Part shown: positions 4,242-32,215 of the stretch, one piece after another | Layout: each line of letters begins with the position of its first letter | Position numbering within the stretch: the stretch's first letter is position 1 | Origin: Candidatus Aminicenantia bacterium | GTDB lineage: Bacteria; Acidobacteriota; Aminicenantia; Aminicenantales; Saccharicenantaceae | Assembly: GCA_041479905.1 (NCBI GenBank) | Contig: JBGOYY010000009.1 | Span: forward strand, 653-64,652 | Direction of reading: 5' to 3' | DNA: 64,000 bases | Position numbers and translations under genes: made by a program | The notes under the pieces: model-generated | What the model saw: the letters and a program-made list of their open reading frames with translations, nothing else | The model's database searches: none | Told to the model about the DNA's origin: nothing

Positions 4242-4244
4242 CGG

Positions 4245-4889: not shown

Positions 4890-5357
4890 GATCGACCTCC
4901 CCGTCGAAGAGGTATTCTGAGGTCAGTATAGTCTCGGAACCGGATCGAGTCAAATCGTCCCATGAGGGGTCATTAAACGGCTTCTTATTGGCTGCCTCCG
5001 AAAAGAGGGAAAGTCCAATAATTGAAGCAAAAACCAAATTTTTGGATAAATCCAAAAAACCGGAGAAAACGCGGCCTGAATGCTATCGTAACATACTCAT
5101 AATAAACATTATAAGTGTTAACAAGCATTGGCATGATACTTGCTAAATATATTGACTTAGATTCAATATGATTACCTATATTTTTGCATACAAAGGAGGT
5201 GAGAACAAAAGGGCGAGTACGCATGAGGGTAAGGGGAGGGGCAGGGACAAACATCTTTTTTGCCCCGGGGCGACCGCTGTCTCCGCCGGCGATCGGCCGA
5301 CGGAAAGCGGGCCGCCATTTGGCCTATGTTTATCGAAAGTTAGGAGGATATTTTTTC

Positions 5358-8576: not shown

Positions 8577-8613
8577 GCAGAAAGCAGAAGCAGCAGCACA
8601 CGCAGAAGCACAA

Positions 8614-8647
8614 GGCCCGCCCCCTCCGGGGGGCGGGCCTTTTTTTT
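8614..8647. terminator. Rho-independent terminator between convergent genes
   Basis: GGCCCGCCCCC-TCCG-GGGGGCGGGCC hairpin followed by a T8 run, located between stop 8576 (+) and stop 8685 (-). Confidence 0.8.
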
Positions 8648-8684
8648 GGATGTTGTTATTTTTTGAGCGAAGCTTCGAGGCGCT

Positions 8685-13015: not shown

Positions 13016-13885
13016 ATGAAGCGCAGACCCGAGTTCGTCCCCGCCGTCGTCCTGGTCCTCGCCGCCCTGGCGCTTTTACCGTCCTCCTGTTCCCGCCGCC
13101 AGCCCGAGCCTGCCCCCGCCGCCCCGCAGACGGCCGACGATGTCCGGGTCAGGGAGACGACGGTCCGCAACGTCACCGAGAGTCCGGTCGCCTACAAGAT
13201 CTACCCCTCCGGCAAGCCGGAGGCGCGCGAGACGCGCGAGATCGCGCCCGGGACCATCGACCGCTTCCGGACCGCGACGCCTCTCGAAATCGAATTCAAC
13301 ACGGGCCGGAAGGACGCGATCTACTCCCTCGACCCGGGCAGTCCCTATTCCTTCCGCTACGACGAAGGGACGACGATCGAGCTCTTTCTCGGCTCCCACG
13401 GCCGGGCCGACGCCGTCGACCTCGCCCCCTGGGTGCCGACGCCCCAGCCCATCGTCGACCGGATGCTCGAGCTTGCCTCCCTGTCCGGCAAGGACGTCCT
13501 TTACGACATCGGCTGCGGCGACGGCCGCATCGTCATCACGGCGGCCCGCCGGTACGGCGTCCGCGGCGTCGGCATCGACATCGACAAGGCCATGATCGAG
13601 GAGTCGGAGCGGGACGCCAAGTCCGCGGGGGTCGAACGGCAGGTCAAGTTCATCTGCATGGACGCGACGAAGGCCGATATCTCGGAAGCGACGGTCGTCA
13701 GCCTCTACCTTCTGCCCGAATCGAACGCCCTGATGCGGCCCCTCCTCGAGGCCCAGCTCCGGCCCAAGAGCCGGGTCGTCTGCCACAACTACACCATCCC
13801 CGGCTGGGAGGAAAAGCAGGTCCAAAGCGAAACGGTCAAGGACGAGAACGGCGAAGACCATTACATCTACCTGTATATCCGCTGA
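13016..13885 (+). CDS. Lipoprotein with C-terminal class I SAM-dependent methyltransferase domain
   Basis: Lipobox-like LLPSSC. VLYDIGCGDGRIV is SAM motif I, followed by GVGIDID (motif II). GAGAGGTG lies 5 nt upstream of ATG 13016. Confidence 0.65.
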   Translation: MKRRPEFVPAVVLVLAALALLPSSCSRRQPEPAPAAPQTADDVRVRETTVRNVTESPVAYKIYPSGKPEARETREIAPGTIDRFRTATPLEIEFNTGRKDAIYSLDPGSPYSFRYDEGTTIELFLGSHGRADAVDLAPWVPTPQPIVDRMLELASLSGKDVLYDIGCGDGRIVITAARRYGVRGVGIDIDKAMIEESERDAKSAGVERQVKFICMDATKADISEATVVSLYLLPESNALMRPLLEAQLRPKSRVVCHNYTIPGWEEKQVQSETVKDENGEDHYIYLYIR

Positions 13886-13907
13886 TGCCGCCCAGGAGGA
13901 GCCGACC

Positions 13908-14240
13908 ATGAAAATTGCCGACGTGCCCTTCACGGTGACGGATTTTCAGTCCATCGCGCCCGTCGAGCATGAGGGCGAGACCGGGACATCCTTCTGGCGG
14001 GTTTTCGAATCCGGCAACGTCCGGGCCAGGGTCGTCGACTATTCGGCGGGCTACCGCTCCAACCACTGGTGCCCGCGGGGCCATGTTTTCTACGTCTTGG
14101 AAGGCGAGTTCGGCGTCGTCCTCAAGGACGGCCGGAATTTCCGCCTCGGGCCAGGGATGAGTTTCGCCGCCGGGGATGACGAGGCGAACCCCCATCTCGG
14201 TTACTCGGAGAAAGGGGCCCGGGTCTTCATCGTCGACTGA
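13908..14240 (+). CDS. Small cupin-fold protein
   Basis: 110 aa with HWCPRGHVFYVLEGEF...GPGMSF, a cupin-like two-motif pattern. Confidence 0.55.
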   Translation: MKIADVPFTVTDFQSIAPVEHEGETGTSFWRVFESGNVRARVVDYSAGYRSNHWCPRGHVFYVLEGEFGVVLKDGRNFRLGPGMSFAAGDDEANPHLGYSEKGARVFIVD

Positions 14241-14311
14241 CCGGACGCGGCAAGACGACATTTCGGCGCCGGCTTCAATCGTCGTCGGATGAGCCCCGGA
14301 ATTAGGAAAAG

Positions 14312-14343
14312 AAAAAAAGGCGCCTCCGCCCGGCGGAGACGCC
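14312..14343 (-). terminator. Rho-independent terminator of OMP gene 14379-14993
   Basis: On the minus strand a GGCGTCTCCGCCGGGCGGAGGCGCC hairpin is followed by T7. Confidence 0.7.
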
Positions 14344-14378
14344 TTGGTCGTCGATAAGTTTACAGGCTGGCCGTTGTC

Positions 14379-14993
14379 TCAGAACGCGATGCCGATCGTC
14401 GCCGACCAGACGCCGTTCTTGATGTCGGGCTGGTACCCTTCAACAATGTTGTACACCTTCTGTATACCCAGGCTGTAACGGGCGTCAACCATAAAATTGC
14501 GACCCAGGTTCAGGCCGGCCCCGAAGATGGCTCCGTAGTCGTTGTTCTTAAAAAGCGTATCGCTCAACGGAACGCCGTCCCCTTCGTGCTTCTCACTAAG
14601 CTTGAAGCCTACAGAAGGACCGGCGAAGACGAAGGGCTGGACAATCGGCAGGGGAATCCGGAGCTTCAGAAGCAGGGGGATCTCGATGTAATCGCCGTAG
14701 AGCTTCTCCGTGAACGTGTCGTCGAGAGAAATATAGGTCGCCCCCTTCATCGTGTACAGGACTTCCCACTGGATGGTCACGACTTTGCCGAAGTTGAACG
14801 CCAGGAAAATACCACCGATGAAACCTATTCTGTTTTTCAGGGTTCCATTAATGTCCTGTGTGTCGGCGCCGGTCGGCTTGGCCATGTTCCCGCCGGCCTT
14901 GATGCCGAACTGGACGCCGGCTGCGGCCGTTTGGGGAAGGGCGAAGAGACCCGCGAAAGCTGCGATCAAGAGAACAGTCGTCAATCTTTTCAT
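14379..14993 (-). CDS. Outer-membrane beta-barrel protein (OMP_b-brl/porin-like), copy 1
   Basis: Signal peptide ending in AAA, alternating beta-strand pattern, and a C-terminal aromatic terminus (TIGIAF). Confidence 0.75.
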   Translation of the reverse strand: MKRLTTVLLIAAFAGLFALPQTAAAGVQFGIKAGGNMAKPTGADTQDINGTLKNRIGFIGGIFLAFNFGKVVTIQWEVLYTMKGATYISLDDTFTEKLYGDYIEIPLLLKLRIPLPIVQPFVFAGPSVGFKLSEKHEGDGVPLSDTLFKNNDYGAIFGAGLNLGRNFMVDARYSLGIQKVYNIVEGYQPDIKNGVWSATIGIAF

Positions 14994-18389: not shown

Positions 18390-18476
18390 GGCCTTTCCTC
18401 GAGAGTTTTATATCACAAGAGGTCCGGCCCCGTCCATCCGCGGCCTTTTTCAGATTCCTTAAATATTCTAGTGCTT

Positions 18477-19112
18477 TCATCGACTTATTTTGGTGAAAAT
18501 ATAACTCAAATAGATAAACCAAATAGACCAGCCAACATGGAAAAAGCGCTGCTTTAATCCGGGATAACCGCTTAAAATGTTTGGCAGAAATGCCAAGAGG
18601 CCTAACGACATTACAAAAAGACTTATTATAGACATTGTTTTAATGTACGATAATTTTCGACTCTTGCTCCATAACAATAGACTCAATAACGGGGAAAGGA
18701 TCAATAGAATGGAAGGCATGCCCATGATGAGATGTAATCTAAGGGGCAAGGGAAAAATCCCAGCTCCGGCAATCGATATTGAATAGGATAAGAGCAAAAT
18801 TACCGGCATGATGCTTATTCCGGTTGCTCCGCATTTTCCGTATAATCCAATGACGAACAGTACGCTTAATGCTGAACATAAAAGCAGTCCAGCCGAGAAT
18901 ACGTATTGAGATCTTGTTCCTAGAGCGCCCAATTCACTTACCATTCTGGATAAGTGATTGTAATTGCCGAGTATAAGTCCGCAAATAAATGTCGTTATAA
19001 AGAAGACTATCGGGATAGCGCTTCCGAGACGAATAAAATAGAATGCGGCAGTCTTTCCACCAGCGGGTTGGTCTTTGATTTCAGCTGGGGGTTTGTTCAT
19101 TTGGATGGCCAC
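18477..19112 (-). CDS. DUF998-like polytopic membrane protein (AT-rich, foreign composition)
   Basis: About six TM segments and an MVSELGALG block as in DUF998. The start is GTG 19112 or ATG 19100. Composition is clearly more AT-rich than the adjacent tyrS. Confidence 0.55.
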   Translation of the reverse strand: MAIQMNKPPAEIKDQPAGGKTAAFYFIRLGSAIPIVFFITTFICGLILGNYNHLSRMVSELGALGTRSQYVFSAGLLLCSALSVLFVIGLYGKCGATGISIMPVILLLSYSISIAGAGIFPLPLRLHLIMGMPSILLILSPLLSLLLWSKSRKLSYIKTMSIISLFVMSLGLLAFLPNILSGYPGLKQRFFHVGWSIWFIYLSYIFTKISR

Positions 19113-19346
19113 CTGGGTTTTATCCTTCGTCCATCGCCTTTGATTTCAATTGCTTACCTCCATCTTTCAACATAGAGCTTTCGGGTTTATGCGGACTGTA
19201 TAAACCGGGTCAAAGCCTATCGACCAGGCTCCGCACACCGTGCACTTTGCGATGTCTTTCATTTCGATCTCCATTTCGCCTCTCTAGTAGTTCACATGCC
19301 ACACAGAGGTGAATACGCTGCTCCGATTTATCCATATGATCTCTCT

Positions 19347-19405
19347 GGCTAACGTCACGGCTCACCGGCGGCGCAACAGCCGTCCGGTGCAGCGCCTTGT
19401 TAGAC
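19347..19405 (-). other. attC-like recombination site A (3' end of the type I R-M cassette)
   Basis: The minus strand reads GTCTAAC...GTTAGCC, beginning 7 nt after the hsdR stop. The plus-strand fold pairs 19359-19368 with 19384-19395 and leaves two bulged bases (C19390, G19394) on the 3' arm. Confidence 0.6.
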
Positions 19406-19412
19406 GGCTTCT

Positions 19413-22400
19413 TCATGCCGCCGCATACACACTGCGCCCCGCACCATAGTAGGCGTCATAGACGTGCTGGAACACAGCCGTCGTTTTTTGCTCGAATAGT
19501 TCCGGCGTGTAGACCTTCGGCAAGCCCTGGTCCAGCAGTTTCTCGATGGTCACACGCACCTCGGCGCGGGCCTGTTGGCGCTTGCGCCAATCGAGCACCA
19601 ATTTCCCCGCCTTGAGCGTGGCCAACAGCTCTCGGGCCGTGGCCTTCACCTTGTCCCGCTCCGCAGCGCTCAATTCAATCTGCGGCTTGGTCAAGAGGTC
19701 AAAAAGCGCGAGTTCTTCTTCGTTCAATTGTTCGCCCACGCTCCGTTGTTCTTCTTCATTCAGGCTCCGGGCGAAGGCCACCAGTTGCTGGAAGAACTCC
19801 TCGGCGTTGAGGCTGCCCGCATTGTAGGCGTCGATCATCGCCTGGAATCGCTCCAGATAATCCATACGCGTGCGATTGAGCCGCACCATGGCCATGAGCT
19901 TCTGCGCCACCGTCCCCTTGAGTTTCTCGTTCATGGTGCGCTTGCGGCTCGTCTTGAATTTCCCGGCCAGGGACTCGAAGTCAATTTTGCTCAGGTCAAT
20001 CCAATGCTCGTCGCCATAGGGATGGCTTACCTCGCGGATGATATAGCCCTCCGTGGCAATCGACCGATCGAGCAGTCCTTCCACCTGCTGCATGACCTGG
20101 GAGATGTCCGCCGGCGGTGTCAGCGCGCGTATTTTATCGGCGATGACCTGCATGGGCGTCACCTCAGCAGCGAAGGACTGGGCAGCCGGGTCGGGCAGTA
20201 CGGCTTGGTAGAGCCGCTGCACGTTATTGGCCTGATCGAGATAGCGGCGTTTGATCTCCTCGGACCTCACCAATGCTTCCACGGCGTCACCGAGCAGGCC
20301 GACGCGGGCAAATCCTTCAGCAGTCTGGATGGCCGCAAGGTTCACCCCTTGTTCCCGACACAAGCCCCGGGTTTCTGCCAACGCCTGCCGCAACTTCGCC
20401 ACCAACGCGGCCTTGTCCTCCACCGGCTTATCACCGCCGCCGCCCGCGCCGTAGATGGCCAGCGCCCGCTCCAAGTTGCGGAACACCCCCGCATAGTCCA
20501 CGATCAGGCCGCTCACCTTGCCGGGATAGACCCGGTTGGCCCGGGCGATGGTCTGCATCAGCGTATGGTTACGCATCGGTTTGTCGAGGTAGAGGGTCGA
20601 ACAGCTCGGCACATCGAAGCCGGTCATCCACATGGCGCATACAAAGACCAGCCGGAAGCGGTCGTCCGGGTCCTTGAACTTCGTCTCCAGATCTTCCTCC
20701 ACCATGCGCTTGCGGTGCGGGCGGATGTCCAGTCCCTTCTCGGCCATCGCGGCAATCTCGTTCTGCCCCTGGGAAACCACCACCGCCATGTCGGTCTCTT
20801 TCATCCGAGCGATCCGTTCTTCAAGCTCTCGCCGGGCATCGCCGATGACACCAGCACGTTCCAGCTGTAACGTCGCGATCTTGGCCCCCCAGTGCTTTTT
20901 CACCTTGTCGTACATGCGGATGGCCGTGGCCTTGTCGATGCAGACCACCATGGCCTTACCCTGAAAGCCTCGCCCGGTGAAATGTTCTACCAGATCTTTG
21001 GCTACCGCCTCCAACCGGTCGTCGCGCGTGATCAAGTGGTACTCTCGGGCAAACTCCCGCTCCAACCTCGATTCCTGGGCTTCGTCCAGCTCCGCCTCTT
21101 CCAGCAGGCATTCCATGTCCTGGTTGAGGTTCTCGTTGACCAGTTGCAGTTCAGGGATGCGATTCTCGTAATAGAGCGGCACCGTCGCGCCATCGACCAC
21201 CGATTGCTGGAAATTGTAGACGCTGATGTAATCGCCGAAGACTTGGCGGGTCTTCTCCTCGCCCACAATCAGCGGCGTACCGGTAAAAGCCAGAAAAGCA
21301 GCGTTGGGCAGAGCCGTGCGCATGTTGAGCGCCAGGGTGTCGTACTGGCTGCGATGGGCCTCGTCGGTGATGACGATGATGTCCCGCCGCTCGGAGAGCA
21401 TCGGGTGCGCCTCGCCCTGCTCGGTGCGGAACTTGTGGATCAGGGTGAAGACATAGCGATGATCCTCGCTGAGCAACTGCCGCAAGTGCCTGCTGCTTTC
21501 CGCCTGGGCGCGGCCTTCAGTCACCACTCCCGCCGAGGCGAAGTGCTTGTAGATCTGCCCGTCCAGCTCCTGCCGGTCGGTGACCACCACGAAGGTCCAG
21601 TTGCCCGGAATCTTGCGCAGCACCTTCTGGGCGAAGAACATCATCGCCACGCTCTTGCCACTACCCTGGGTATGCCAGAACACCCCCAGCTTGCCCTCCC
21701 GTTGACGGATGTCGGCCAGGGCCTCCAGCGCGTTATTGACGCCCAAGTACTGGTGATTCTTGGCCGTCAGCTTGATCAGCCCTCCGGGCGCTTCCTGGAA
21801 CAAGGTGAAGTTCTCCACCAGATCCAACAACCGCTTCGGTTCGCAGACGCGCAGCATGGTCTGTAGCGAGACCCGGCCCGCCTCGTCCTCGCTGTCCACC
21901 TTCTTCCACTCGGCGAAGTGTTCCCAGCCGGCGGTGATACTGCCCATCCGGCTCTGGCTGCCGTTGGAAAGGATAACCAGGGCATTGGGCCAGAAAAGCT
22001 GCGGCACCGTGTCCTTGTAGTCGCGCAGGTTGCCCGTGAAGGCGGTCTCCAGGCGGCGGTGTGCGGCCTTCAGTTCGATCAGGACCAGCGGTAGGCCGTT
22101 GACGAAGCCCACCAGGTCGGCGCGGCGGGTGTGCATCTCGCCCGTGACCCAGAACTGCGAGCAGAGCAGAAAGTCGTTGTTGGCTGGTTCATCCCAATCA
22201 ATCACCCGCACCACTTCCACCGTCTCGCCGTTCCCCTCGGGATCGGGAACGGGGACCCGTACGCCGTTTTTGAGCAGGTGATAGATCTCGCGGTTGGCGG
22301 CCACCGAACTCATGCGCGAGCGGTCGCGGGTCAGTTCCTCGATGGCCTGATTGATGGCCTCGGGCGGCGCATCCGGGTTAAGCCACTGCAGGGCCGGGCG

Positions 22401-22565
22401 AAGTCGGGCGGTGAGGATGACCTCGGCCCGGGTCTCCCGGCCCAGCGTGCTCGCGCCGTGGTCGAACTCGCCGAAGGCGTTGACCGTCTCCCAGCCCAAC
22501 TCCGCCAGCAGGACGATGGCCGGTTGCTCGACCAGGGAGTCTTCGGTGTAGCCGGTAGGGGTCAT
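19413..22565 (-). CDS. hsdR: Type I restriction enzyme R subunit
   Basis: Walker A TQGSGKSV and DEAH box (VITDEAHRSQ). 1050 aa. ATGA-type overlap with hsdS at 22562-22565. Confidence 0.92.
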   Translation of the reverse strand: MTPTGYTEDSLVEQPAIVLLAELGWETVNAFGEFDHGASTLGRETRAEVILTARLRPALQWLNPDAPPEAINQAIEELTRDRSRMSSVAANREIYHLLKNGVRVPVPDPEGNGETVEVVRVIDWDEPANNDFLLCSQFWVTGEMHTRRADLVGFVNGLPLVLIELKAAHRRLETAFTGNLRDYKDTVPQLFWPNALVILSNGSQSRMGSITAGWEHFAEWKKVDSEDEAGRVSLQTMLRVCEPKRLLDLVENFTLFQEAPGGLIKLTAKNHQYLGVNNALEALADIRQREGKLGVFWHTQGSGKSVAMMFFAQKVLRKIPGNWTFVVVTDRQELDGQIYKHFASAGVVTEGRAQAESSRHLRQLLSEDHRYVFTLIHKFRTEQGEAHPMLSERRDIIVITDEAHRSQYDTLALNMRTALPNAAFLAFTGTPLIVGEEKTRQVFGDYISVYNFQQSVVDGATVPLYYENRIPELQLVNENLNQDMECLLEEAELDEAQESRLEREFAREYHLITRDDRLEAVAKDLVEHFTGRGFQGKAMVVCIDKATAIRMYDKVKKHWGAKIATLQLERAGVIGDARRELEERIARMKETDMAVVVSQGQNEIAAMAEKGLDIRPHRKRMVEEDLETKFKDPDDRFRLVFVCAMWMTGFDVPSCSTLYLDKPMRNHTLMQTIARANRVYPGKVSGLIVDYAGVFRNLERALAIYGAGGGGDKPVEDKAALVAKLRQALAETRGLCREQGVNLAAIQTAEGFARVGLLGDAVEALVRSEEIKRRYLDQANNVQRLYQAVLPDPAAQSFAAEVTPMQVIADKIRALTPPADISQVMQQVEGLLDRSIATEGYIIREVSHPYGDEHWIDLSKIDFESLAGKFKTSRKRTMNEKLKGTVAQKLMAMVRLNRTRMDYLERFQAMIDAYNAGSLNAEEFFQQLVAFARSLNEEEQRSVGEQLNEEELALFDLLTKPQIELSAAERDKVKATARELLATLKAGKLVLDWRKRQQARAEVRVTIEKLLDQGLPKVYTPELFEQKTTAVFQHVYDAYYGAGRSVYAAA

Positions 22566-23746
22566 GCGCCGGCCTCCTCGGGAACGGCAATGTCCAGTTC
22601 CGATACATCCACCTCGCCGGAGATGAGCCGGAGCAGCAGCAGGTCGCAGGTGCGGCGGAGGGTCTGATTTCGGTAATTCAATGAATGGATCATCTCGAAT
22701 TGAAGGCGCGTGGTCATCTGGAAACGTTCGAGGATCGCGTCAGGAGGTTGTGCTAAGAGAAATTGATCAAAACATTCTTCGCGGACGCGTTGGCGACCCG
22801 TAGCGCCGGACATACTCTTGATGGCGTTATCACGGAATAGCTCACTGCGGGCCATAAGATAGACGTATTCCGGGCATACCGTTTTGGAGCGGAGGACGAT
22901 GAGCTCCGTCGAGCCACAGGCGACAGTGTTATCGGTTGGCAAGAACTGAACAAACCCTGTTTTACCATTTTCCAGACACGGCGTGATTCGTGCGAAGAGG
23001 GTATCGCCATTTTGGAAACGCGCTCCGCTGGCTTTTGGTCGATATTCGATCTCACAGATAAGCATCGAATTCTCCGACAAACTTCCCATTGCGACGAATG
23101 GGATTTGTCCGTTCTTGGGCACTGGAAGCGCTGGTCGAACGGTAACCGCATCGGGCATCGCTTTCACCTCCCACCCCTCCGGAATCCTGCCGAGAGGGGA
23201 ATCAACAAAACGGACTTGCTTATGACCAGGGAAGCAGAACTTGACGAACCACTCGCGGTAGAGGTTCTGCGCCATCTCCTCCAGAATCTTGATCCGCCGC
23301 AGGTTGTTCTCGACCAAGTCGTCGTAGGCCGAGAGAGTCGCCGCGATTTTCCGCTGCGTGGGGAGGGGGGGGATAGCAACATCCAGACCGTCCAGATGGT
23401 TGCGATTTAATGTTGGTACACCAGCCCCAGAGTTGTAGCGCTCCAAGCCGAGAGTCTGTAATAAATAGAAAACAAACTTGGGGTCATTGCCTTTGAAATC
23501 CTTGACCCAGAGCGTAGTGTTCAACGGCCAAAATGGTTTCTCAAGATATTGTACCGAACCAAGAGATCCGCTTCGTCCAGTAACAACGCCAGGCGGTTTT
23601 ACTTTGTATTCAATGTGATAGTCTTGAACGGAAGTTGAAGCCACCACAGGAAATACCCCAGGTTCTCGGTCCTGTTTTGGGAGGTCAAAACCTCTTTGTA
23701 GCGTCACGAAATTACTGAATGTCGTATAGTTGAAGGTCTTCGCCAT
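22562..23746 (-). CDS. hsdS: Type I restriction enzyme S (specificity) subunit
   Basis: Two target-recognition halves separated by conserved helices (NLRRIKILEEMAQNLYREWF; LRRTCDLLLLRLISGEV). ATG 23746 overlaps the upstream stop (TGATG); GTG 23749 is the track start. Confidence 0.9.
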   Translation of the reverse strand: MAKTFNYTTFSNFVTLQRGFDLPKQDREPGVFPVVASTSVQDYHIEYKVKPPGVVTGRSGSLGSVQYLEKPFWPLNTTLWVKDFKGNDPKFVFYLLQTLGLERYNSGAGVPTLNRNHLDGLDVAIPPLPTQRKIAATLSAYDDLVENNLRRIKILEEMAQNLYREWFVKFCFPGHKQVRFVDSPLGRIPEGWEVKAMPDAVTVRPALPVPKNGQIPFVAMGSLSENSMLICEIEYRPKASGARFQNGDTLFARITPCLENGKTGFVQFLPTDNTVACGSTELIVLRSKTVCPEYVYLMARSELFRDNAIKSMSGATGRQRVREECFDQFLLAQPPDAILERFQMTTRLQFEMIHSLNYRNQTLRRTCDLLLLRLISGEVDVSELDIAVPEEAGA

Positions 23747-23828
23747 CACTCCCCCTCCAACAACTTGGCCACATTCTCGGCGATCCGCGCTTCTAGTTCG
23801 CGAGCCTCAACGTTGAGGGTTTCCAGTT
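23743..23828. repeat. Direct repeat, copy 1 (hsdM tail / start-coupling junction)
   Basis: 86 nt with 6 mismatches to 24935-25020 by hand alignment. Confidence 0.85.
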
Positions 23829-23859
23829 TATTCGCCATTCTTTGTCCCGAATTTTCCAT
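23746..23859 (-). pseudogene. Relic copy of the hsdM 3' end (37-codon [40 protein letters not shown])
   Basis: The last 26 codons duplicate the hsdM C-terminus ([26 protein letters not shown]). The ORF is coupled on both sides (TAATG and TGATG overlaps). Confidence 0.6.
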
Positions 23860-24938
23860 TACTCCTTCTCCTCTATTTTCCCGCCCAACCGCTCCCGGGC
23901 CAAGGCAATCGCCCGGTGCAGTTTTTCGCCGAGCAACTTTCGGGGCGGCAGGGCGGTGAGGTATTCGGCGACATGGATGCCGGAGCTGCCCAATTCCAGC
24001 AGTTCGATCTGCTCCTGTTTCTTGCCGGCACAAAGGATCATGCCCAGGGGCGCCTCCTCGCCTTGCTTACGCTCGTATTTGTCCAGCCAGCGCAGATAGA
24101 GCTCCATCTGCCCTTTGTGCTCGGGCCGGAACTTGTCCAGTTTCAGCTCGATGGCGACCAGACGGCGCAGGTTGCGGTGGAAAAAGAGGAGGTCGAGGTA
24201 GAAGTCATCCTCGTCCACGGTAATGCGTTTCTGGCGGGCGACAAAGGAGAAGCCGATGCCCAACTCCAGGATGAAGGCTTCCATCTCGCGGATGATGGCC
24301 GCCTCCAGGTCTTTTTCCTGAAAGGCGCCTTTCAGGCCCAGAAAATCAAGAAAATAGGGATCGCGAAACACCAGATCCGAGGTGAGTTTGTCTTTTTCGC
24401 GCAGGGCGTCGAGTTCTATACGGGCCAGTTCCTCCGGTTTCTTGGACAGAGCGGTACGCTCGTAGAGCATGGAGCCGATCTTCCGCCGCAGGGTGCGGAC
24501 GCTCCAACGTTCGATACGGCACATTTCTGCATAGAAGTCGCGCTGAAGAGGTTTGTCGAGGGGGATTAGCGCGATAATGTGGGTCCAACTCAATTGTCGT
24601 ATCAGTGATACGACAATCCGCTCATCCGGGAATACCTCGGCAAATTGGATCATGCGGCGCATATTTTTTTCACCGAACCCATTCCCATAGTCACGCACCA
24701 ATTCTTGCGACAGTGTCGCAAGAATCTCTTTACCGTACTCCGCCCGTTCGCCTTTCAGAATTTCCTCGTTAATGCGTTTGCCGACGCGCCAGTAGAGCAA
24801 ACTCAGGGCAGCGTTGACCGTGGCGGCAACACCTTGGCGGGTTTCCTCGATCAACCGGCGGAGGTCTTCCAGAAGCGGGGGCGATGCAACCGGCAGCACA
24901 GGTTCTATTTTCACCAGGTCATGCTTTTTGCCGGCCAT
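23859..24938 (-). CDS. DUF1016/YhcG-family PDDEXK nuclease-domain protein inserted between hsdM and hsdS
   Basis: LYWRVGKRINEEIL...RNLRRLVAIELKLDKF (an E-x-K core), a family commonly embedded in type I R-M operons. ATG 24938 overlaps the hsdM stop (TGATG). Confidence 0.8.
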   Translation of the reverse strand: MAGKKHDLVKIEPVLPVASPPLLEDLRRLIEETRQGVAATVNAALSLLYWRVGKRINEEILKGERAEYGKEILATLSQELVRDYGNGFGEKNMRRMIQFAEVFPDERIVVSLIRQLSWTHIIALIPLDKPLQRDFYAEMCRIERWSVRTLRRKIGSMLYERTALSKKPEELARIELDALREKDKLTSDLVFRDPYFLDFLGLKGAFQEKDLEAAIIREMEAFILELGIGFSFVARQKRITVDEDDFYLDLLFFHRNLRRLVAIELKLDKFRPEHKGQMELYLRWLDKYERKQGEEAPLGMILCAGKKQEQIELLELGSSGIHVAEYLTALPPRKLLGEKLHRAIALARERLGGKIEEKE

Positions 24939-25020
24939 CACTCCCCCTCCAACAGCTTGACCACATTCTCTGCGATCCGCGCTTCCAGTTCGCGAGCCTC
25001 GGCGTTGAGGGTTTCCAGTT
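24935..25020. repeat. Direct repeat, copy 2 (authentic hsdM 3' end)
   Basis: Partner of 23743-23828. Confidence 0.85.
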
Positions 25021-26491
25021 CCTCGTTCTGCTCCCCCAGCCGCTCCTTGAAATCGAAGTCCTCTTCGGCGCGGGCGGCCACGCCCACATAGCGGCCGGGG
25101 TTGAGGCTCCAGCCCTGGACTTTGATCTCGGAGAGCGTCGCCACCTTGCACAGGCCCGCCACATCGACATACTTGGGTTTCTTGCCGAAGTGTTCGGCCA
25201 GCAGGTCGGCGCTGTCATGCAGGTTCTCGACGGCTTCACCCCGGTAGAGCCGGGCGATGTTTGCCAGGAACTCGATCTGCGCCGGGGTCCAGTCGCGGTG
25301 GGCGCGGTCGATCTGGCGGTAGAGGTGGCGGGCGTCAATGAAGAGCACTTTAGCGGCGCGGGCGGTCTTGCGCTTGCCCCGGTCGAAGAACCAGAGGGTG
25401 CAGGGCAGGGTCACGGTGTAGAAGAAGTTGGAGCCGACGGCCACCATCACATCCACGGCGCGGGCTTCTATGAGTTGGCGGCGGATCTCCAGCTCCGAGC
25501 CGCGGGCGTCGGAGGCGGAGTTGGCCATGACGAATCCGGCGCGGCCGGTGTCGGAGAGGGCGCTGTAGAAGAGCTGAATCCAGAGATAGTTGGCGTTGTC
25601 CGTCCGGGGCAGGCCGAATGGGAAGCGCGGGTCGTCCTTGAGCCGGTCCTTGTCCACCCGGTCTACATTGAAGGGCGGATTGGCCATCACGAAATCGAAC
25701 TTGCCGGTGGAGCGGTGCAGGTCTTCGTAGTAGGCGTTGCCCTGGCGGATGTCGCCGGCCAGACCATGCACGGCGAGGTTCATCTTGCCCAGCCGGACGG
25801 TCTCGGCCACCTTCTCCTGGCCGTAGACGCTCAGCTCGGCGCCGGGGTTCTTCTGGTGTTCGGTCACAAAACGGGCGCTCTGCACGAACATGCCGCCGGA
25901 ACCACAGGCCGGGTCAAAGATGCGGCCGTGGAACGGTTCGATGATGCCGACGATGAGCTGGACGATGGCGGTGGGGGTGAAAAACTCGCCGCCCTTCTGG
26001 CCCTCGCTCATGGCGAAGTGGCCGAGGAAGTATTCGTAAATCTTGCCAAAGGCGTCCCCCTCGATGTCCATGGGGACGGAGTTCATGGTCTTGAGCAGCT
26101 CTTTGAGTAGGGCGTTCTCGAAGCGGTTGTAGGTCTTGGGCAGGACGTCCTTGAGGTCGGGGTTCTCCTCTTCGATGGCGCGCATGGCGTCGTTGATGGC
26201 CGCGCCGATGTTGGCCCCTTCGGGCAGTTGGATCAGCGCCGAGAAACGCGCCACCTCGGGCAAGTAGAGCACGCCCCGGGCCTGGTAGTCCGCCGGGCCG
26301 ATCTTCCGTCGCCCGCCACCTTGTCCGGTCAGTTCCTTCGCCGCCGCCTGGAACTTGTGGGCGGCATAGCGCAGAAAGACCAGCCCCAGCACCGGCACGG
26401 AGTATTCCGAGGACTTCAGCTTGGAATTGGCCCGCAGTTCATCCGCCGCGTCCCAGAGCCGGGATTCGATGTTGTTGCCGTTATGATTCAT
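24938..26491 (-). CDS. hsdM: Type I restriction enzyme M subunit (N6-adenine methyltransferase)
   Basis: HsdM N-terminal domain ([14 protein letters not shown]), SAM motif I ([12 protein letters not shown]) and catalytic [10 protein letters not shown]. Confidence 0.92.
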
Positions 26492-26521
26492 AGTTTCTTC
26501 CTGCGTCTATTTCTATTTGCC

Positions 26522-26611
26522 ATCTAACGCTTCGGCTAACCTGCCGCGCCAACGAGTTTCCCGCATAGCGCCACCGCGCTTCTCGCGGTCAGGTTGAGCC
26601 GGTTGTTATAC
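26522..26611 (-). other. attC-like recombination site B (3' end of the membrane-protein cassette)
   Basis: The minus strand reads GTATAAC...AAGCGTTAGAT. The plus-strand fold has 16 bp (26533-26548 with 26584-26601) and exactly two bulged bases, T26589 and G26596, on the 3' arm, which is the classical T/G extrahelical pattern of attC bottom strands. Confidence 0.75.
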
Positions 26612-26627
26612 CTTTTTTCCTTTTATT

Positions 26628-27497
26628 TCATGATTTTGCACTCTTGAAATCTCGAACTGCTTCATCAACTTCTTTTTTATCCTTAAACCGTAAGGTATTG
26701 ATATGTTTAGACCATTTATTCAACACCCATAGATTTGTGCCGAAAGCAAGTATTGTTTTCTTTTTCACATATTTCAATAACGCTACATCCCTGACAAAGA
26801 ATCGAAGCCTGACAAATAGAGATTCGTAACCTGCATATAGCGCCGCAAAATACACGAATGGCAGGAACATGATTGAAAACAAGATAGGTAGATAATAGTT
26901 TTCTAAATTTTTAAAGGTAGCAAAGTGCTTAAAATCGGTAACCACCATATAGATGGCATAGCTTGTAAAGGCTAAACCAATAAAAGCCATGATGTAGTTT
27001 AAAAGTTTTTTTGCTATTTCGTATTTTTTATCTGTCCCGGCAATGGCTATCATTCCTCCTAAAATGACAAAAACTGGCACGAGGAATAGCTCAACCCATA
27101 AATCAAATACGTACAAGTTGATAAGGAATTCGAGAACGATCAAACCTTTGATGTTGTCTTTGATGGCGTCTTTAAAGAAGTTCTGATTACTTGCCTTTGA
27201 AAATTCAAATAGCATGACAAATGCAACGTACAAAACCCATAGGATAGTGATTTGTAAATGGGGCAATTTCCAAATACCAACTGCATTCAGAGGAATTATC
27301 ATAAGAGTAATGTACGAGAACATTATCACGTATGAAATTGCAAGTTTCCATGCGAAAAATGCTTTTAATACTTGAAATAATGATTTCCTGAGTTTGGGTT
27401 GGGAAAGCGCCCAGATGACGGCTATGAGTATCCATATTGCAATAGCAAGTTCTCGATTGCTGAATTTCTGGAACAAATTAATTGCCGTATTTATCAT
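26628..27497 (-). CDS. Polytopic membrane protein, no recognised family (AT-rich single-gene cassette)
   Basis: 289 aa with about 7 hydrophobic helices (IAIWILIAVIWAL, ISYVIMFSYITLMIIPL, ITILWVLYVAFVMLF and others) and a basic C-terminal tail. Confidence 0.6.
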   Translation of the reverse strand: MINTAINLFQKFSNRELAIAIWILIAVIWALSQPKLRKSLFQVLKAFFAWKLAISYVIMFSYITLMIIPLNAVGIWKLPHLQITILWVLYVAFVMLFEFSKASNQNFFKDAIKDNIKGLIVLEFLINLYVFDLWVELFLVPVFVILGGMIAIAGTDKKYEIAKKLLNYIMAFIGLAFTSYAIYMVVTDFKHFATFKNLENYYLPILFSIMFLPFVYFAALYAGYESLFVRLRFFVRDVALLKYVKKKTILAFGTNLWVLNKWSKHINTLRFKDKKEVDEAVRDFKSAKS

Positions 27498-27515
27498 TTT
27501 GGTAATTTTGTAATA

Positions 27516-27586
27516 GTATGACGTCTGCGGTGACCGGCGCGAAACCCGCCGCGGGTTTCGCGTACGTGTCGCCCGCCTTGTTCGCT
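27516..27586 (-). other. attC-like recombination site C (3' end of the 355-aa cassette)
   Basis: The minus strand reads AGCGAAC (5 nt after the stop)...GTCATAC. The plus-strand fold has an outer stem (27527-27536 with 27565-27576) with bulges T27567 and C27574, plus an inner 10-bp stem (27538-27547 with 27553-27562). Confidence 0.5.
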
Positions 27587-27591
27587 GTTCA

Positions 27592-28659
27592 TCATGTCTG
27601 CGGGTCTCTTTGTCCCGAAATAATGGCGATCAAATTCACAACTGCCGTAGTAGCCTCGGCACACATCGCAGCCGCTCGGAAGTCCGCCGTCCGCCTGTGC
27701 GTGACTTCGTTGGCGAAGTCCAATGATGATTTTGAATGTCGGCGTGCGGTTTCATTTGTTTGGCCGGGTAGCTTTGCCGCGAGATAGGCGTCGATCATTC
27801 TCTTCGCGTCAGTTGAGCTTGGGATGACACCATCCTCGGTGGGATACGCACCTGCATTGTAGACCGTCTGGGCTAGTGATATTAGAGTTTCTCGGCAGAG
27901 CAATCCAACGGCTTGAAACTGCTCCTCAGTTTTCGCTTGCGCGAGGCGCGTTCTTATCTCGCCAAGGGTTCGGTCAACACGAGTCCATCCAGTGGGTCCA
28001 GTGAAGATTATCTGTGTTGGCGTTATTTCGCCTTGCTTGAGCGCTTTCGCCACCGGACCGAACAGCCCGTTGATGTAGTTCCTTCGTGACTGGTAGGAGG
28101 GAAGGTCTCCGCTGCTCCATTTGCCGTACCATTCCCAGAGATCGGAGTACGGGTTGGGGTCTTCAATTTCTCTCTCTGCTAGCCCGGTGTGAATCAACTC
28201 GCGCCGCTCCTTGTAGTCGTGGTTAACAGTCTCGATGCGGGGGCCGCCAGTGGAGACGGATATCATTAGATTTCTCTGTGCATCGAGTGCTGTGAGCACA
28301 TCCGTGTTGGAGATCTGATGCGGTTGGATTGGCGTCTGTGTCGTAGTAATCAGTAGGGGCGAAACAACGACCTCTCCAATCCAAGTGTTCGGATATTTCC
28401 GCAGGATGGGTCGAAGCTTTTCCTTGATTGTCTCTTCAACGGTCTTCAGGTTTGCTTCGTAGGTTGCATAGATGTCTGTGGGCACTTCGAGGTATAGTCC
28501 ATAGATGTCGGTGCCACCATTCCAGTTGTCATAGCCGACTTGCTCAATTCGCGCTTGTGCAGCCCGCAGGATCTCGCTTTCTGGATAGCTGCCGTCGTGG
28601 TTGAACAGCTCTCGCAGTGTTCTGATCAGGGCGTCACAGTCTTGTGAAATATCGGCCAT
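27592..28659 (-). CDS. Hypothetical protein, orphan single-gene cassette
   Basis: Long ORF of intermediate GC. ATG 28659 is preferred over GTG 28686 because the latter would overlap attC site D. I recognise no catalytic motif. Confidence 0.6.
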   Translation of the reverse strand: MADISQDCDALIRTLRELFNHDGSYPESEILRAAQARIEQVGYDNWNGGTDIYGLYLEVPTDIYATYEANLKTVEETIKEKLRPILRKYPNTWIGEVVVSPLLITTTQTPIQPHQISNTDVLTALDAQRNLMISVSTGGPRIETVNHDYKERRELIHTGLAEREIEDPNPYSDLWEWYGKWSSGDLPSYQSRRNYINGLFGPVAKALKQGEITPTQIIFTGPTGWTRVDRTLGEIRTRLAQAKTEEQFQAVGLLCRETLISLAQTVYNAGAYPTEDGVIPSSTDAKRMIDAYLAAKLPGQTNETARRHSKSSLDFANEVTHRRTADFRAAAMCAEATTAVVNLIAIISGQRDPQT

Positions 28660-28668
28660 ATTCTTTTC

Positions 28669-28724
28669 AGCGAACGCAGAGCTCACCCGCCACTTTAAAG
28701 GTCGGGTGTAGCGACTGGTTAGCC
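28669..28724 (-). other. attC-like recombination site D (3' end of the dcm/GHKL/vsr cassette)
   Basis: The minus strand reads GGCTAAC (containing the vsr TAA stop)...GTTCGCT. The plus-strand fold has 11 bp (28681-28691 with 28700-28712) and two bulged T (28702, 28709) on the 3' arm. Confidence 0.65.
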
Positions 28725-29183
28725 GTATTTATTACCTTCGCCAGTATTTGTAGCTTCTTTTTTTCGTAACAAAACACGGGCGATTTCTTTAACACAAGTC
28801 GACGTATCTTTTTTTATTTCGAAATCCCAAAAACGAAAAACTTTCCACCCATCTTGCTTCAAGCGTATCGTGATTGCTTTATCTCTTCGTATGTTATCTT
28901 CAATTTTCTTGAGCCAAAAACCTTTTCTTACTTTTATTTTATTCTTTTCCTCCGACCAATTGAAACCATGCCAAAAAGAGGAGTCGCAAAACACTGCGAT
29001 CTTCCGACGTTTCCAACAAAAATCAGGCGTGCCGAGTACGCCCTTTAGATTCTTGCGATACCCGCGCAAACTTGAGGTCCAAAGCGCACTGCCCAGGATC
29101 TTTTCTATTCCCGTCCCTTTCGCTTTCACACAGGACATTTTGTATGAAACAATTTCCTTTTTACTTCGCTTTAAAAGAGTCAT
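28719..29183 (-). CDS. vsr: Very-short-patch repair endonuclease
   Basis: GTPDFCW...KIAVFCDSSFWHG core typical of Vsr. About 154 aa. Confidence 0.85.
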   Translation of the reverse strand: MTLLKRSKKEIVSYKMSCVKAKGTGIEKILGSALWTSSLRGYRKNLKGVLGTPDFCWKRRKIAVFCDSSFWHGFNWSEEKNKIKVRKGFWLKKIEDNIRRDKAITIRLKQDGWKVFRFWDFEIKKDTSTCVKEIARVLLRKKEATNTGEGNKYG

Positions 29184-29186
29184 TAC

Positions 29187-30863
29187 TTATTTATCTTTAT
29201 TAGACAACAGAGCTTTTATCCTCTCCTTTATATTGGAATAAACAGTAGTTAATTTACTTTTTGCCTCATCGGTTAGAAGGGCTGTATGTGCAAGGGCATC
29301 TCTAAGTGGTTTATACTCCTTTGCATCCCTCGAAAGACAAGCTTCCATCTGAGTATCTTTCTTGTCCACCATATTTGCAAGTGCATCCATTGCTAAATAA
29401 CTTAATATAGTATTTGTTTTTCTAATTTCTATGGATATGTTTCCTTTCTTTTTACTGTCCGTTTCTTTATTTCTCCATTTATCATATTCTTCTTTTGCTT
29501 CTTTAGAGAGGGGAACCTTCTTTTCTTGAATATATTTTCTGATTAGGTTTTCGGATATAAAACATTCCGCATAAGACGCAAAATTATATTTCGCATCAGC
29601 GCCCAAATCAATAACCCACCCATCAATAGTTTTACTATTCATTGAATCTTTAGGAAGAATATATTCTTCGGAAACTGCGTTATATAGTTCCTCAGCCTTT
29701 CTCTCTTTTTTGGTGATACTTGTATCCTCTGAATCACCATCATTTCTATGCTTTCTTCTCCAAGCATCCCAATCGTTAAGAATTTTACCTATAATTTTAT
29801 CTCTTAATGAATCTAGAAGCTCCTTGTATTTGGGGTCATCTGCAACGATGCTTTCACGACTACTAGTGAATCTGTCCACCACATCGTCCAAATCGTTAAA
29901 ATGAACCTGCCCGTATAAGTAACTTTCGACCACCCTAGCGGTGGGAATGTGTTTTAAAATGTCTCTTTCTCTTAATCTACCATTGACAAAAAGATCAACG
30001 CCGATCCTTTCGTCAATAGTAATTATTTTGAGATTCCTCGGCTTTTCGACAGAGGCAATAAATCCCTTAATATTTCCTTTTACATTAAGTTGTTTTTCTT
30101 CATTTTTGTCTGGAGTAAATTTCTCTTGAAGCTTCTGAATATAGGGATCGGGAAGATCGTTTATTTTCCATAGAAACTGCGTTTTTGAGGCAAGATCATC
30201 CAAACAATCCTGAGTAACCTTCTCATCGTCAATAAATATATCAAAGGCCTGATCCAATAAAGAGAATCGAAAATACAGAGCAATGATCTTTTTTAAGAAA
30301 CCTAAGCTATGTTTTATCCCGTCTTTGATATTTTCAAAATAAATAATAGTGCCTTGGTCATGATCTTTTATATGCTGGCTAAAAGTATCTATCCTCCATT
30401 CTCCTAATGGATATTCCTTTGGCGTCAAGTCGTCGGTTATGGCTCGATCCAAATCTGAATTATCAATAACCCCGCCAATATAATTCCCGCCGTGTGTTTT
30501 TGATATAATAGTAATTTTCTCTGCGCACGATAATAATGCTAATTTCCCGATTCCCTTTCTGCCGATGTATGGCCTATTTTTTTGGGGAGAAGCTTTTCCC
30601 TCTTTTCTTTTTGTATATCCGATCTTCAAAAACTTATTTTGGAAATCACCCGCAGTCATACCCACGCCATCATCTTTTATGAAAAAGTTGTTCTTTGCTT
30701 TATCGATATAAATGCTTACATTCTCAGCATCTGCATCCCATGCATTAGAAATCGCCTCCCCAAGAACAGTTGCGAAGCTTCTGTATAAATTTCTTCCCAA
30801 GTGATTTAGGACACTCAAAGAAATTTCAAACGAAAAATTATGACTTTCTGATTGGCTATTCAT
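29187..30863 (-). CDS. GHKL (HATPase_c, MutL/MORC-like) ATPase with long C-terminal extension and a possible HEPN-type Rx4H motif
   Basis: Bergerat-fold boxes EAISNAWDA (N box), IKDDGVGM (G1) and GRKGIGKLA (G2). LRDALAH lies 33 residues from the C-terminus. ATG 30863 overlaps the dcm stop by 8 nt. Confidence 0.75.
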   Translation of the reverse strand: MNSQSESHNFSFEISLSVLNHLGRNLYRSFATVLGEAISNAWDADAENVSIYIDKAKNNFFIKDDGVGMTAGDFQNKFLKIGYTKRKEGKASPQKNRPYIGRKGIGKLALLSCAEKITIISKTHGGNYIGGVIDNSDLDRAITDDLTPKEYPLGEWRIDTFSQHIKDHDQGTIIYFENIKDGIKHSLGFLKKIIALYFRFSLLDQAFDIFIDDEKVTQDCLDDLASKTQFLWKINDLPDPYIQKLQEKFTPDKNEEKQLNVKGNIKGFIASVEKPRNLKIITIDERIGVDLFVNGRLRERDILKHIPTARVVESYLYGQVHFNDLDDVVDRFTSSRESIVADDPKYKELLDSLRDKIIGKILNDWDAWRRKHRNDGDSEDTSITKKERKAEELYNAVSEEYILPKDSMNSKTIDGWVIDLGADAKYNFASYAECFISENLIRKYIQEKKVPLSKEAKEEYDKWRNKETDSKKKGNISIEIRKTNTILSYLAMDALANMVDKKDTQMEACLSRDAKEYKPLRDALAHTALLTDEAKSKLTTVYSNIKERIKALLSNKDK

Positions 30864-31929
30864 AATACTTATCAATATGCTTAATAATACTTTTTCCGAT
30901 TATTTCGCCTAATCGGACAGGTACAGCATTCCCTATGTATCTTCCTAATCTTTTAAGTCCCACAGGAGCAGTTGAAGGAATAAACTTATATTTTCTTGGA
31001 AAGGTTTGTAAAATTGCACCCTCTCGTATCGAAATGGCTCTATCTTGCTCAGGGTGACCAAATCGCCCTGTTCCAAAACTAAAAAACTGTGTGGTTATAG
31101 TAGGTGCCGGCTTATTCCATTCCATCCTTGCATAAACGGCACTATAAGTGTCGCCGGACTCTTTCCGATGACAATCCGCTCTTAATTTCTCATCCCAATC
31201 CCGCCATGAACTACCTGGCGCCGATTTTTTAATTCTTTCAAGATTGACTCCCGATAGAGCAGCCGATTTATGCAATCTATCCTTCCTTGATGATGTCCCG
31301 GCTTTAATTGACTCTAAATTACCGATAGCCATTTTGACTGTTTTGTAATTTTCTGGCTTATGTGTCGGAGCGATTAATTTTGTTTCTCCTAACTTTGAAG
31401 CAAATAGTACTAACCTTCTTCGATTTTGTGGAATTCCGTAATCTGGACAATATACAATTTGCCAACTGACATTATATTTTAACAACTTAAGACCTTCAAC
31501 AAAATCGGAGAAAACTTTATGTTTAGTTATCTGAGGAACATTTTCCATTGAAACTACTATGGGTTCCACTTTCTTAATCAATTTGAAAAAATGATAAAGC
31601 AATCCCCAATCTTCTTTAGTCTCTCTATCTTTTTCCTTTTGAGTATGCTTTGAGAATGGTTGGCATGGTGCACAACCTACCAAAACTTTCGAACTTTGGG
31701 TAGGATATAAATTTAGGATTTCTTTTGGTGTGATTTCTTTGATGCTCTTGTGAATAAACAATGCGCCATTGTTCTCTTCAAATGCAAATTTACATTTTTC
31801 ATCGACATCAACTCCGGCTACGACTTTAATACCGGACTTGTTCAAACCATAAGTCAATCCCCCAACTCCACAAAAGAGGTCTACCGCAACAATAGACAAT
31901 TTACTGTTTATATGAGATTTTGTATTCAT
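30856..31929 (-). CDS. dcm: DNA (cytosine-5)-methyltransferase
   Basis: Motif I DLFCGVGG, motif IV GCAPCQPFS, motif VI ENV, motif VIII QNRRRLV. Confidence 0.92.
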   Translation of the reverse strand: MNTKSHINSKLSIVAVDLFCGVGGLTYGLNKSGIKVVAGVDVDEKCKFAFEENNGALFIHKSIKEITPKEILNLYPTQSSKVLVGCAPCQPFSKHTQKEKDRETKEDWGLLYHFFKLIKKVEPIVVSMENVPQITKHKVFSDFVEGLKLLKYNVSWQIVYCPDYGIPQNRRRLVLFASKLGETKLIAPTHKPENYKTVKMAIGNLESIKAGTSSRKDRLHKSAALSGVNLERIKKSAPGSSWRDWDEKLRADCHRKESGDTYSAVYARMEWNKPAPTITTQFFSFGTGRFGHPEQDRAISIREGAILQTFPRKYKFIPSTAPVGLKRLGRYIGNAVPVRLGEIIGKSIIKHIDKYYE

Positions 31930-31999
31930 CTTTCTTCCGAAAAATCATCCATCATAAACACTCTTTACGTATCCGTTAGGTTATTTTTAGTTGTCATAC

Positions 32000-32062
32000 G
32001 GCTAACAATGATTATACAGTCTGTATAATTCTGGAAATACAGATCATTTCAACTGGTTATCT
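32000..32062 (-). other. attC-like recombination site E (proximal end of the array)
   Basis: The minus strand reads AGATAAC...GTTAGCC. AATGAT/ATCATT and TATACAG/CTGTATA stems lie between the cores. GTTAGCC is the exact complement of the inverse core of site D. Confidence 0.5.
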
Positions 32063-32186
32063 CCCTCTTTCAACACAGAGCTTGAGGAATTTTAGGGGTT
32101 TCGGGTAACAACGTGATCCGGTCTTTGGCCCCCTCGCCGTCGCGGATGATAATTCGGAGAAAATCAACTGAACCCCTTCAAGAGGG

Positions 32187-32215
32187 ATTCTAGATTGGCC
32201 CGGCCGGGATGTCAA
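32187..32215 (-). promoter_or_regulatory. Near-consensus sigma70 promoter reading into the cassette array
   Basis: Minus strand: TTGACA (32215-32210), a 17-nt spacer, then TAGAAT (32192-32187). It lies 21 nt downstream of the dcp stop. Confidence 0.5.

Follow-up and report, generated by a model that had tools for sequence, protein, structure and literature searches.

Organization of the island

The stretch of DNA described here (referred to below as the window; 64,000 nucleotides of contig JBGOYY010000009.1 from a Candidatus Aminicenantia bacterium) contains a 13.8 kb island (~32221-18439) that separates two housekeeping genes, dcp (34386-32236, minus strand) and tyrS. Read along the minus strand, dcp is followed by a 160-nt leader, a site designated A, genes for a Dcm methylase, a restriction enzyme of the BbrUII/HgiDII family and Vsr, site B, an open reading frame (ORF) of 364 aa, site C, an ORF of 289 aa, site D, the genes hsdM, yhcG, hsdS and hsdR, and site E; beyond site E lie ~230 nt of non-coding sequence, a DUF998 gene and then tyrS, the other flank of the island. 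GC content ranges from 36% to 65% along the island, compared with ~63% for the host, and the nearest relatives of the Dcp protein (96-97% identity) belong to metagenome-assembled genomes labelled Candidatus Aminicenantes or Acidobacteria.

An initial annotation of the window had described this region as an integron-type array in which five attC-like sites bound four cassettes and no integrase is present. The core of that interpretation, a cassette array without a functional integrase, is supported by matches to an attC model, by cassettes that recur in other arrays and by relatives in which the dcp-tyrS junction is empty. We conclude that the island is, in all likelihood, a chromosomal integron that has lost its integrase, making it a cluster of attC sites lacking integron integrases (CALIN) as defined by IntegronFinder. 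Relative and environmental contigs are labelled L002-L187 throughout.

attC sites

A covariance model was trained on nine attC sites from eight plasmids, each located where an annotated class 1 integron cassette ends and all independent of the window (the cassettes include aadA2, aadB, blaVIM-2, aac(6')-Ib, dfrA5, dfrA27 and arr-3). A single geometry describes all nine training sites, with a 5' arm of 7-5-3-1-6-1 and a 3' arm of 3-6-3-(5/6)-7. The first version, R1, scored the training sites at 24-66 bits and site E at 41.9 bits, inside the training range, but penalised long variable loops and missed site D; the second, R2, was rebuilt from re-aligned sites with real loop lengths and run over the full 64 kb on both strands with filters off. 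R2 returned exactly three significant matches in the window, all of them full-length, on the minus strand and at the coordinates given in the initial annotation: site E (19347..19405; 39.9 bits, E = 1e-8), site D (26522..26611; 39.1 bits, E = 2e-8) and site B (28669..28724; 26.7 bits, E = 6e-5). The next-best match in the window scored 14.5 bits (E = 0.17), and no match at E up to 1 was found in 80 control loci (1.36 Mb). The minus-strand search with an attC covariance model that had been proposed as a check therefore succeeded for B, D and E and failed for C and A. A scan with Rfam, which holds no attC family, gave no matches.

Sites B, D and E pass the joint scoring of the R''/L''-L'/R' helices with their unpaired spacers, and carry an inverse core (RYYYAAC) and a core (GTTRRRY) in inverted orientation; site C has GTCATAC in place of the latter and site A has the cores only. 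Their organization resembles that of class 1 attC sites such as that of aadA2, with a 7-nt R'', a 5-nt spacer, an L'' box with a pair of extrahelical bases separated by 6 nt, a variable loop, L', a 5-6-nt spacer and a 7-nt R'. They differ from class 1 sites in the second extrahelical base, which is T or C instead of G in sites B and E, and in their L boxes, which share a local pattern of their own (GCTNCACCNGAC) that is partly present in L091 as well. Across ten environmental attC sites, 9 of the 12 base pairs of the L-box helix have changed on both sides, a count that is biased towards structure by an alignment fitted to the model. Judged from their sequences, B, D and E have canonical attC geometry and are predicted to recombine.

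All ten of the 7-mers quoted for the site ends in the initial annotation are present, exact and correctly placed, and the TAA that terminates vsr (28721-28719) does lie inside the inverse core GGCTAAC of site B. Sites B, C, D and E occupy the gaps between minus-strand gene blocks as foldable palindromes, with z scores for single-stranded DNA folding, relative to dinucleotide shuffles, of -3.75, -2.89, -3.16 and -2.14, respectively. The fifth proposed palindrome, site A (32000..32062, minus strand), forms no single hairpin but two small stems (z = -1.98). As to the pairs of extrahelical bases that had been assigned to four sites, T28702/T28709 in B, T26589/G26596 in D and C19390 in E were recovered, whereas the partner of C19390 is T19383, not G19394, and site C gives no clean pair. 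In B, D and E, alignment to the model assigns these bases to the plus strand's 3' arm with the spacing T-N6-(T/G/C), as in class 1 attC sites.

Site A is without extrahelical bases and fails the model on the minus strand; only its R boxes align, on the plus strand, with 8.8 bits. It is not an attC, but contains the junction G|TTAGCC (32006|32005) at which the first cassette starts, and may be an attI-like, hybrid or decayed site. Site C (27516..27586, minus strand) has the R' core GTC for GTT, and its L boxes pair at only 4/6 and 2/3 positions. Its 3' arm is homologous to an attC on L187 in which L'' and L' still pair, and for this reason we regard site C as a decayed attC that would have been mutated out of function. 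Of the five attC-like sites originally listed, four are thus retained as attC, one of them (C) decayed, and site A becomes an attI-like or hybrid junction. The cores, the position of B to E in the gaps and the core pairing described in the initial annotation hold, while the status of A as an attC, the clean structure of C and the second extrahelical base of E do not.

Core pairing and cassette boundaries

Under the established integron model, each cassette would once have been a circle closed through a single attC. The integron integrase would have recombined the folded bottom strand, which corresponds to the plus strand of the window, with crossover between the G and the TT of the R' core; cassettes would therefore start with TTRRRY and finish with their own attC. 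This boundary logic holds for all four of the cassettes that had been proposed, namely cassette 1 (28675..32005, ending in site B), cassette 2 (27522..28674, site C), cassette 3 (26528..27521, site D) and cassette 4 (19353..26527, site E), all on the minus strand. As the initial annotation had noted, the inverse core that ends each cassette complements the core at the 5' boundary of that same cassette, at 7, 7, 6 and 6 of 7 positions (26/28 in total); for cassette 1 the complement is the GTTAGCC of site A, matched at 7/7 positions. When only the variable core positions are counted, pairing within cassettes reaches 15/16, against 7/16 for the physical partners, and a check against shuffled boundaries found the observed pairing to be the single best among 24 permutations. 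The one core mismatch of cassette 3 is a T-to-C change in site C (GTTATAC to GTCATAC), and a related cassette on L177 keeps GTTATAC.

Recurrence of cassettes 2 and 3 in other arrays

Cassette 2 (1153 bp) encodes a protein of 364 aa (27592-28686; 355 aa in public gene calls) and cassette 3 (994 bp) a helical membrane protein of 289 aa, neither with an assigned function. Cassette 2 is 96.6% identical in nucleotide sequence to a region of L179, the homology starting at the core GTTCGCT, where the preceding attC (31.9 bits) is a different one; in a more distant homologue on L187 (76% amino-acid identity) the boundary is unchanged, the attC ahead of it (20.3 bits) is yet another, and the attC to which site C was compared above follows. 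Three different attC sites thus precede cassette 2 in the window, L179 and L187, and its start is GTTCGCT each time. A 59% homologue of its protein is located in attC-rich arrays, and homologues on L180, L181 and L186 occur with no recognisable attC. Cassette 3 is ~89% identical at the nucleotide level to a cassette on L177, a contig of ~40% GC; here, the homology runs from the core, G|TTATAC in L177 or G|TCATAC in the window, through the gene and its 90-nt attC to G|TTAG, and the L177 counterpart of site D scores 30.7 bits. With homology that breaks precisely where the G|TT crossover falls, cassettes 2 and 3 are, on sequence comparison, identified as discrete mobile units that are present in other arrays.

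These comparisons also bear on a more ordinary explanation, that the palindromes are transcription terminators, or repeats of the repetitive extragenic palindromic (REP) or miniature inverted-repeat transposable element (MITE) type, in a conventional defence island and that their cores are coincidental. The sites do directly follow stop codons as G+C-rich hairpins. A terminator scan, however, reported none of the five (0/5), a model built from unrelated attC sites matches them with E values down to 1e-8, no such sites occur elsewhere in the window or in the 1.36 Mb of control loci, and the homology to other arrays ends precisely at G|TT. The terminator or REP explanation is already contradicted by these data and we consider it extremely improbable.

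The cassette 2 protein has more than 2000 homologues in many phyla, none with a Pfam domain (family listing P0001-P0120), and the family conserves several invariant W, R, D and H residues. A confident AlphaFold model (predicted local distance difference test score, pLDDT, of 86) had no fold match in the PDB. For the proteins of cassettes 2 and 3 alike, no family match, no PDB sequence match and no significant PDB fold match for the predicted structures was obtained. The statement that all identifiable cargo is defence-related consequently applies to two of the four cassettes, as the 364 aa and 289 aa proteins are without an identified function. Both families (355-364 aa and 289 aa), encountered repeatedly in arrays of cassettes and in defence islands, are candidates for functional testing.

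The contig that carries the cassette 3 homologue (L177, 1-16870; Logan SRR3951870) carries BREX genes (BrxHI, PglZ, BrxA), followed by the homologue and its attC, an SbcCD-like two-gene unit of ~5 kb closed by an attC of class 1-like type (13980-14041), and an OLD/AriA-like gene. In L177, attC-bounded cassettes are embedded in a defence island. The BREX and OLD/AriA-like neighbours would link the cassette 3 family to defence only through guilt by association.

Leader and putative integrase relic

The inserted leader starts with a promoter-like sequence, TTGACA-17-TAGAAT (32187..32215, minus strand), that matches the consensus at 11/12 positions and reads into the cassettes; it would be expected to drive the array. 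Together with the junction G|TTAGCC, these conserved hexamers are the features next to cassette 1 that could correspond to attI and Pc, in a lineage for which there is no attI model.

Between the promoter-like sequence and site A lies a putative integron integrase relic, VDFLRIIIRDGEGAKDRITLLPE (32097..32168), encoded on the minus strand, which is the strand of the cassettes. A tblastn search with IntI1 as the sole query found no intact tyrosine recombinase in the 64 kb, and its best match in the window (32153-32097, inside the leader) has 58% identity over 19 aa (IntI1 165-183; E = 0.005). The relic comprises ~24 codons and aligns to IntI1 residues ~161-183. Among the 18,950 NCBIfam models, the only two that reach E values up to 10 with it are integron-integrase models (0.013 and 0.07), and four control peptides from neighbouring sequence gave no matches. 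On this evidence the leader peptide is probably a remnant of an integron integrase. The assertion in the initial annotation that no integrase is present is accordingly correct for an intact gene in the 64 kb, but overlooks the relic at 32168-32097. No intact integrase gene was found at the corresponding loci of close relatives either. Of the intact intI with its IntI-specific domain that belongs to a complete integron, the relic is all that was found.

The integrase gene may have decayed in place to this remnant of ~24 codons on the cassette strand, which would correspond to the 'inverted' integron layout. Integrons of this layout, in which intI and the cassettes share a strand, occur in Treponema, Chlorobi and Planctomycetes. 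The window resembles them in that the relic reads in the cassette direction, upstream of the first junction; because only ~24 integrase codons survive, neither the orientation class of the array nor its attI can be fixed. Any further movement of the cassettes would presumably require an integrase acting in trans.

The same locus in relatives

The initial annotation had suggested looking in related genomes for an empty tyrS-dcp junction or a different cassette content, and both were seen. The two genes are adjacent, 32-190 bp apart, in L002, L004, L007, L093, L095 and L096, and are separated by different cargo in L016, L090, L091, L092 and L133. The L091 array includes HMA and Cys-rich genes with an attC of 40 bits, a CPBP gene interrupted by an insertion sequence, and a decayed attC; L090 carries a weak attC-like site, whose last bases are GTTAGCC, and behind it an intact gene of 130 aa. 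The leader with TTGACA-17-TAGAAT is common to the window, L016 and L091, the hexamers being kept in both relatives although their cargo differs, and L090 retains only the -10 half.

At its other end the island closes with a tail (18439..19352, minus strand) made up of the stub of a deleted fifth cassette, a repeat copy described below, the DUF998 gene (18477-19112) and a right-end segment (18439-18460). The stub (19352 to ~19283, minus strand) was recognized by comparison with L090, where the 130 aa gene is intact; the window keeps only its first ~40 nt and last ~30 nt, after site E. The right-end segment, AAGGAAyCTGAArAArGCCGC, is common to the window, L090 and L091 and adjoins the host sequence GGATGGACGGGG.

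An alternative origin for such an array is that no integron platform ever existed at this locus, and that an integrase encoded elsewhere placed cassettes at a secondary site of the attG type and later ones at the resulting attC. The first junction would suit this, being only G|TTAGCC with no attC. Insertions of the attG type have been documented (bioRxiv 10.1101/2022.09.11.507474), and half of all CALINs occur in genomes that encode IntI elsewhere (PMC4889954). Two observations make this origin improbable in our view: site A is preceded, at a distance of 35 nt, by the integrase relic, and a leader of ~55 nt is common to four relatives with different cargo, with the promoter conserved in three and the right end in two. 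Because both the leader and the right end are common to relatives whose cargo differs, the locus appears to be a platform that was inherited and then diversified. As judged from these alignments, the pattern fits the acquisition of one platform, followed by cassette turnover and deletional decay. The decay of an integron into a CALIN would then be readable at a single locus, in the relic of the integrase, the mutation of an attC and the internal deletions of cassettes.

Two further observations were made at the relatives' loci. In L091 (12971-14872), the CPBP-family protease cassette is split by an IS630-like insertion with two transposase ORFs (13460-14520), and the decayed attC that follows starts with GGCTAAC. 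In L092, whose dcp is 93% identical to that of the window, the gap (5356-5917) contains a pair of 77 aa genes that by eye resemble a HicB/HicA toxin-antitoxin system, and the common leader and the attC sites are absent.

Large restriction-modification cassettes

The identifiable cargo consists of two restriction-modification systems, one of type II accompanied by Vsr and one of type I that includes a YhcG nuclease, in the two cassettes that the initial annotation had rightly singled out as large and multigenic. Cassette 1 (3331 bp, ~37% GC) encodes the Dcm methylase, the BbrUII/HgiDII-family restriction enzyme and Vsr, as assigned with Pfam, PADLOC and NCBIfam. Its dcm and restriction-enzyme ORFs overlap and vsr begins 4 nt past the restriction-enzyme stop codon, and since the ORFs overlap or nearly abut there is no room for an internal attC. 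Cassette 4 (7175 bp) encodes the type I proteins HsdM, HsdS and HsdR with a YhcG/DUF1016 nuclease inserted (Pfam, PADLOC); hsdM starts 30 nt past site D, the hsdR stop codon lies 7 nt ahead of site E, and R2 found no internal attC.

Two side observations concern these cassettes. Site B has 59% GC and the L-box pattern of D and E, yet the body of cassette 1 (28725-32005) has ~37% GC, which suggests that the attC was joined to the cassette 1 genes in a lineage other than that in which the genes originated. In cassette 4, a direct repeat of 87 nt (93% identical; 23742-23828 and 24934-25020) brackets the yhcG/DUF1016 gene between hsdM and hsdS; the repeat leaves a 37-codon duplicate of the hsdM 3' end, and the nuclease gene therefore looks inserted into the type I operon.

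Several findings weigh against interpreting the island as an integron that has lost its integrase. The attC model was built by ourselves and is distinct from that of IntegronFinder; site C fails it, and site A fails every attC test, both by model and by folding, which leaves the start of the array unexplained. The relic is short, has weak E values (0.005 to 0.07), lies outside the IntI-specific domain and had no match in Pfam; a homologue search with it found nothing. The integrase searches covered the 64-kb window and the relatives' loci. Cassettes 1 (3.3 kb) and 4 (7.2 kb) exceed the accepted cassette size, and exact-sequence look-ups with HsdR and Dcm retrieved only the same array in other samples, giving no second context for either cassette.

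With regard to size, the largest known cassette is ~2 kb, and the 4 kb threshold used for clustering attC sites was set as twice that value (Cury et al. 2016, PMC4889954); for a cassette with attC sites 4 kb apart, a 2026 preprint reports that no copies were recovered (10.64898/2026.03.17.712381). It is possible that only cassettes 2 and 3 are true integron cassettes. Both restriction-modification operons would then have arrived, or expanded, between attC sites already in place through a different process (homologous replacement, transposition or stepwise insertion, for example), and the 3.3 kb and 7.2 kb blocks would never have been circles with a single attC. The size limits in these two reports and the single known context of each block agree with such a history, as do the host-like GC content of cassette 4 and the 87-nt repeat around yhcG, which indicates that this cassette grew by insertion at some time. 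Against it stand the match of each inverse core to its own 5' boundary (7/7 for cassette 1, 6/7 for cassette 4), the tight packing, with vsr terminating within the R'' of its site and hsdR 7 nt short of R'', the contrast in GC content between cassette 1 and a site B of the same L-box type as D and E, and the two-gene ~5 kb cassette of L177, which is another large unit between two significant attC sites. On balance we consider this piecemeal origin of the two operons rather unlikely.

The 3.3 kb, 7.2 kb and L177 ~5 kb units have strong attC sites at their bounds and no internal room for more. We advance only tentatively the proposal that whole multigene defence operons, 3 to 7 kb in length, are moved as single cassettes by integron recombination in this lineage. 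If it is true, the accepted size limit of ~2-4 kb does not hold generally, and clustering attC sites at the default 4 kb systematically hides large cassettes in environmental genomes. The units described here are concrete candidates for cassettes far bigger than present tools and models assume.

Comparison with CALINs and defence integrons

By the IntegronFinder definition, a CALIN has two or more same-strand attC sites spaced by less than 4 kb and no intI in the vicinity; sites B and D are 2.06 kb apart and the 64 kb contain no intact intI. The array shares with the CALINs of Cury et al. (2016, PMC4889954) its co-oriented attC sites around gene blocks that look promoterless and the absence of an intact intI nearby, and differs from them in having one decayed site and an uncultured, Aminicenantes-like host. 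Because site E lies 7.1 kb from D, beyond the 4 kb threshold, IntegronFinder with default settings would probably call only B and D. An intI pseudogene lies beside the cluster in 15 of 279 CALINs (PMC4889954).

Anti-phage cassettes have been reported in integrons (Darracq et al., 10.1101/2024.07.02.601686; Kieffer et al., 10.1101/2024.07.02.601719; Getz et al. 2025), and the window resembles these in its attC-bounded restriction-modification cassettes within a chromosomal array. The integron defence systems emphasized in these studies are small and streamlined, with restriction systems of types II and IV predominating and long loci absent (10.1101/2024.07.02.601686, 10.1101/2024.07.02.601719), whereas the window has a four-gene type I system in 7.2 kb and a three-gene type II system in 3.3 kb.

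Integron-type arrays that carry defence cargo but no working integrase are already known, under the name of CALIN or degraded integron. CALINs, adjacent intI pseudogenes and integron defence cassettes have all been described, and what stands out here is the size of the cassettes and the host. The array extends integron-type arrays with defence cargo to an uncultured Acidobacteriota/Aminicenantes lineage, and no paper in the literature searched joins Aminicenantes with 'integron' and 'attC'. Its interest comes mainly from the large multigene defence cassettes and from a decay that is legible step by step.

Other features

A direct repeat of 38 nt is present at both ends of the array on the minus strand, one copy (32046..32083), shortly ahead of the junction at which cassette 1 starts, overlapping the inverse core assigned to site A in the initial annotation and the other (19143-19180) lying ~60 nt upstream of the DUF998 gene. 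The copies are 87% identical, and the window contains two matches where 0.01 would be expected. Three of the five differences fall on third codon positions of one frame; identification of the repeat as an integrase C-terminus was considered and dropped, as no family match was obtained. Apart from the island, a second stretch of below-host GC content (0.53-0.59) occurs at 4001-9000 of the window.

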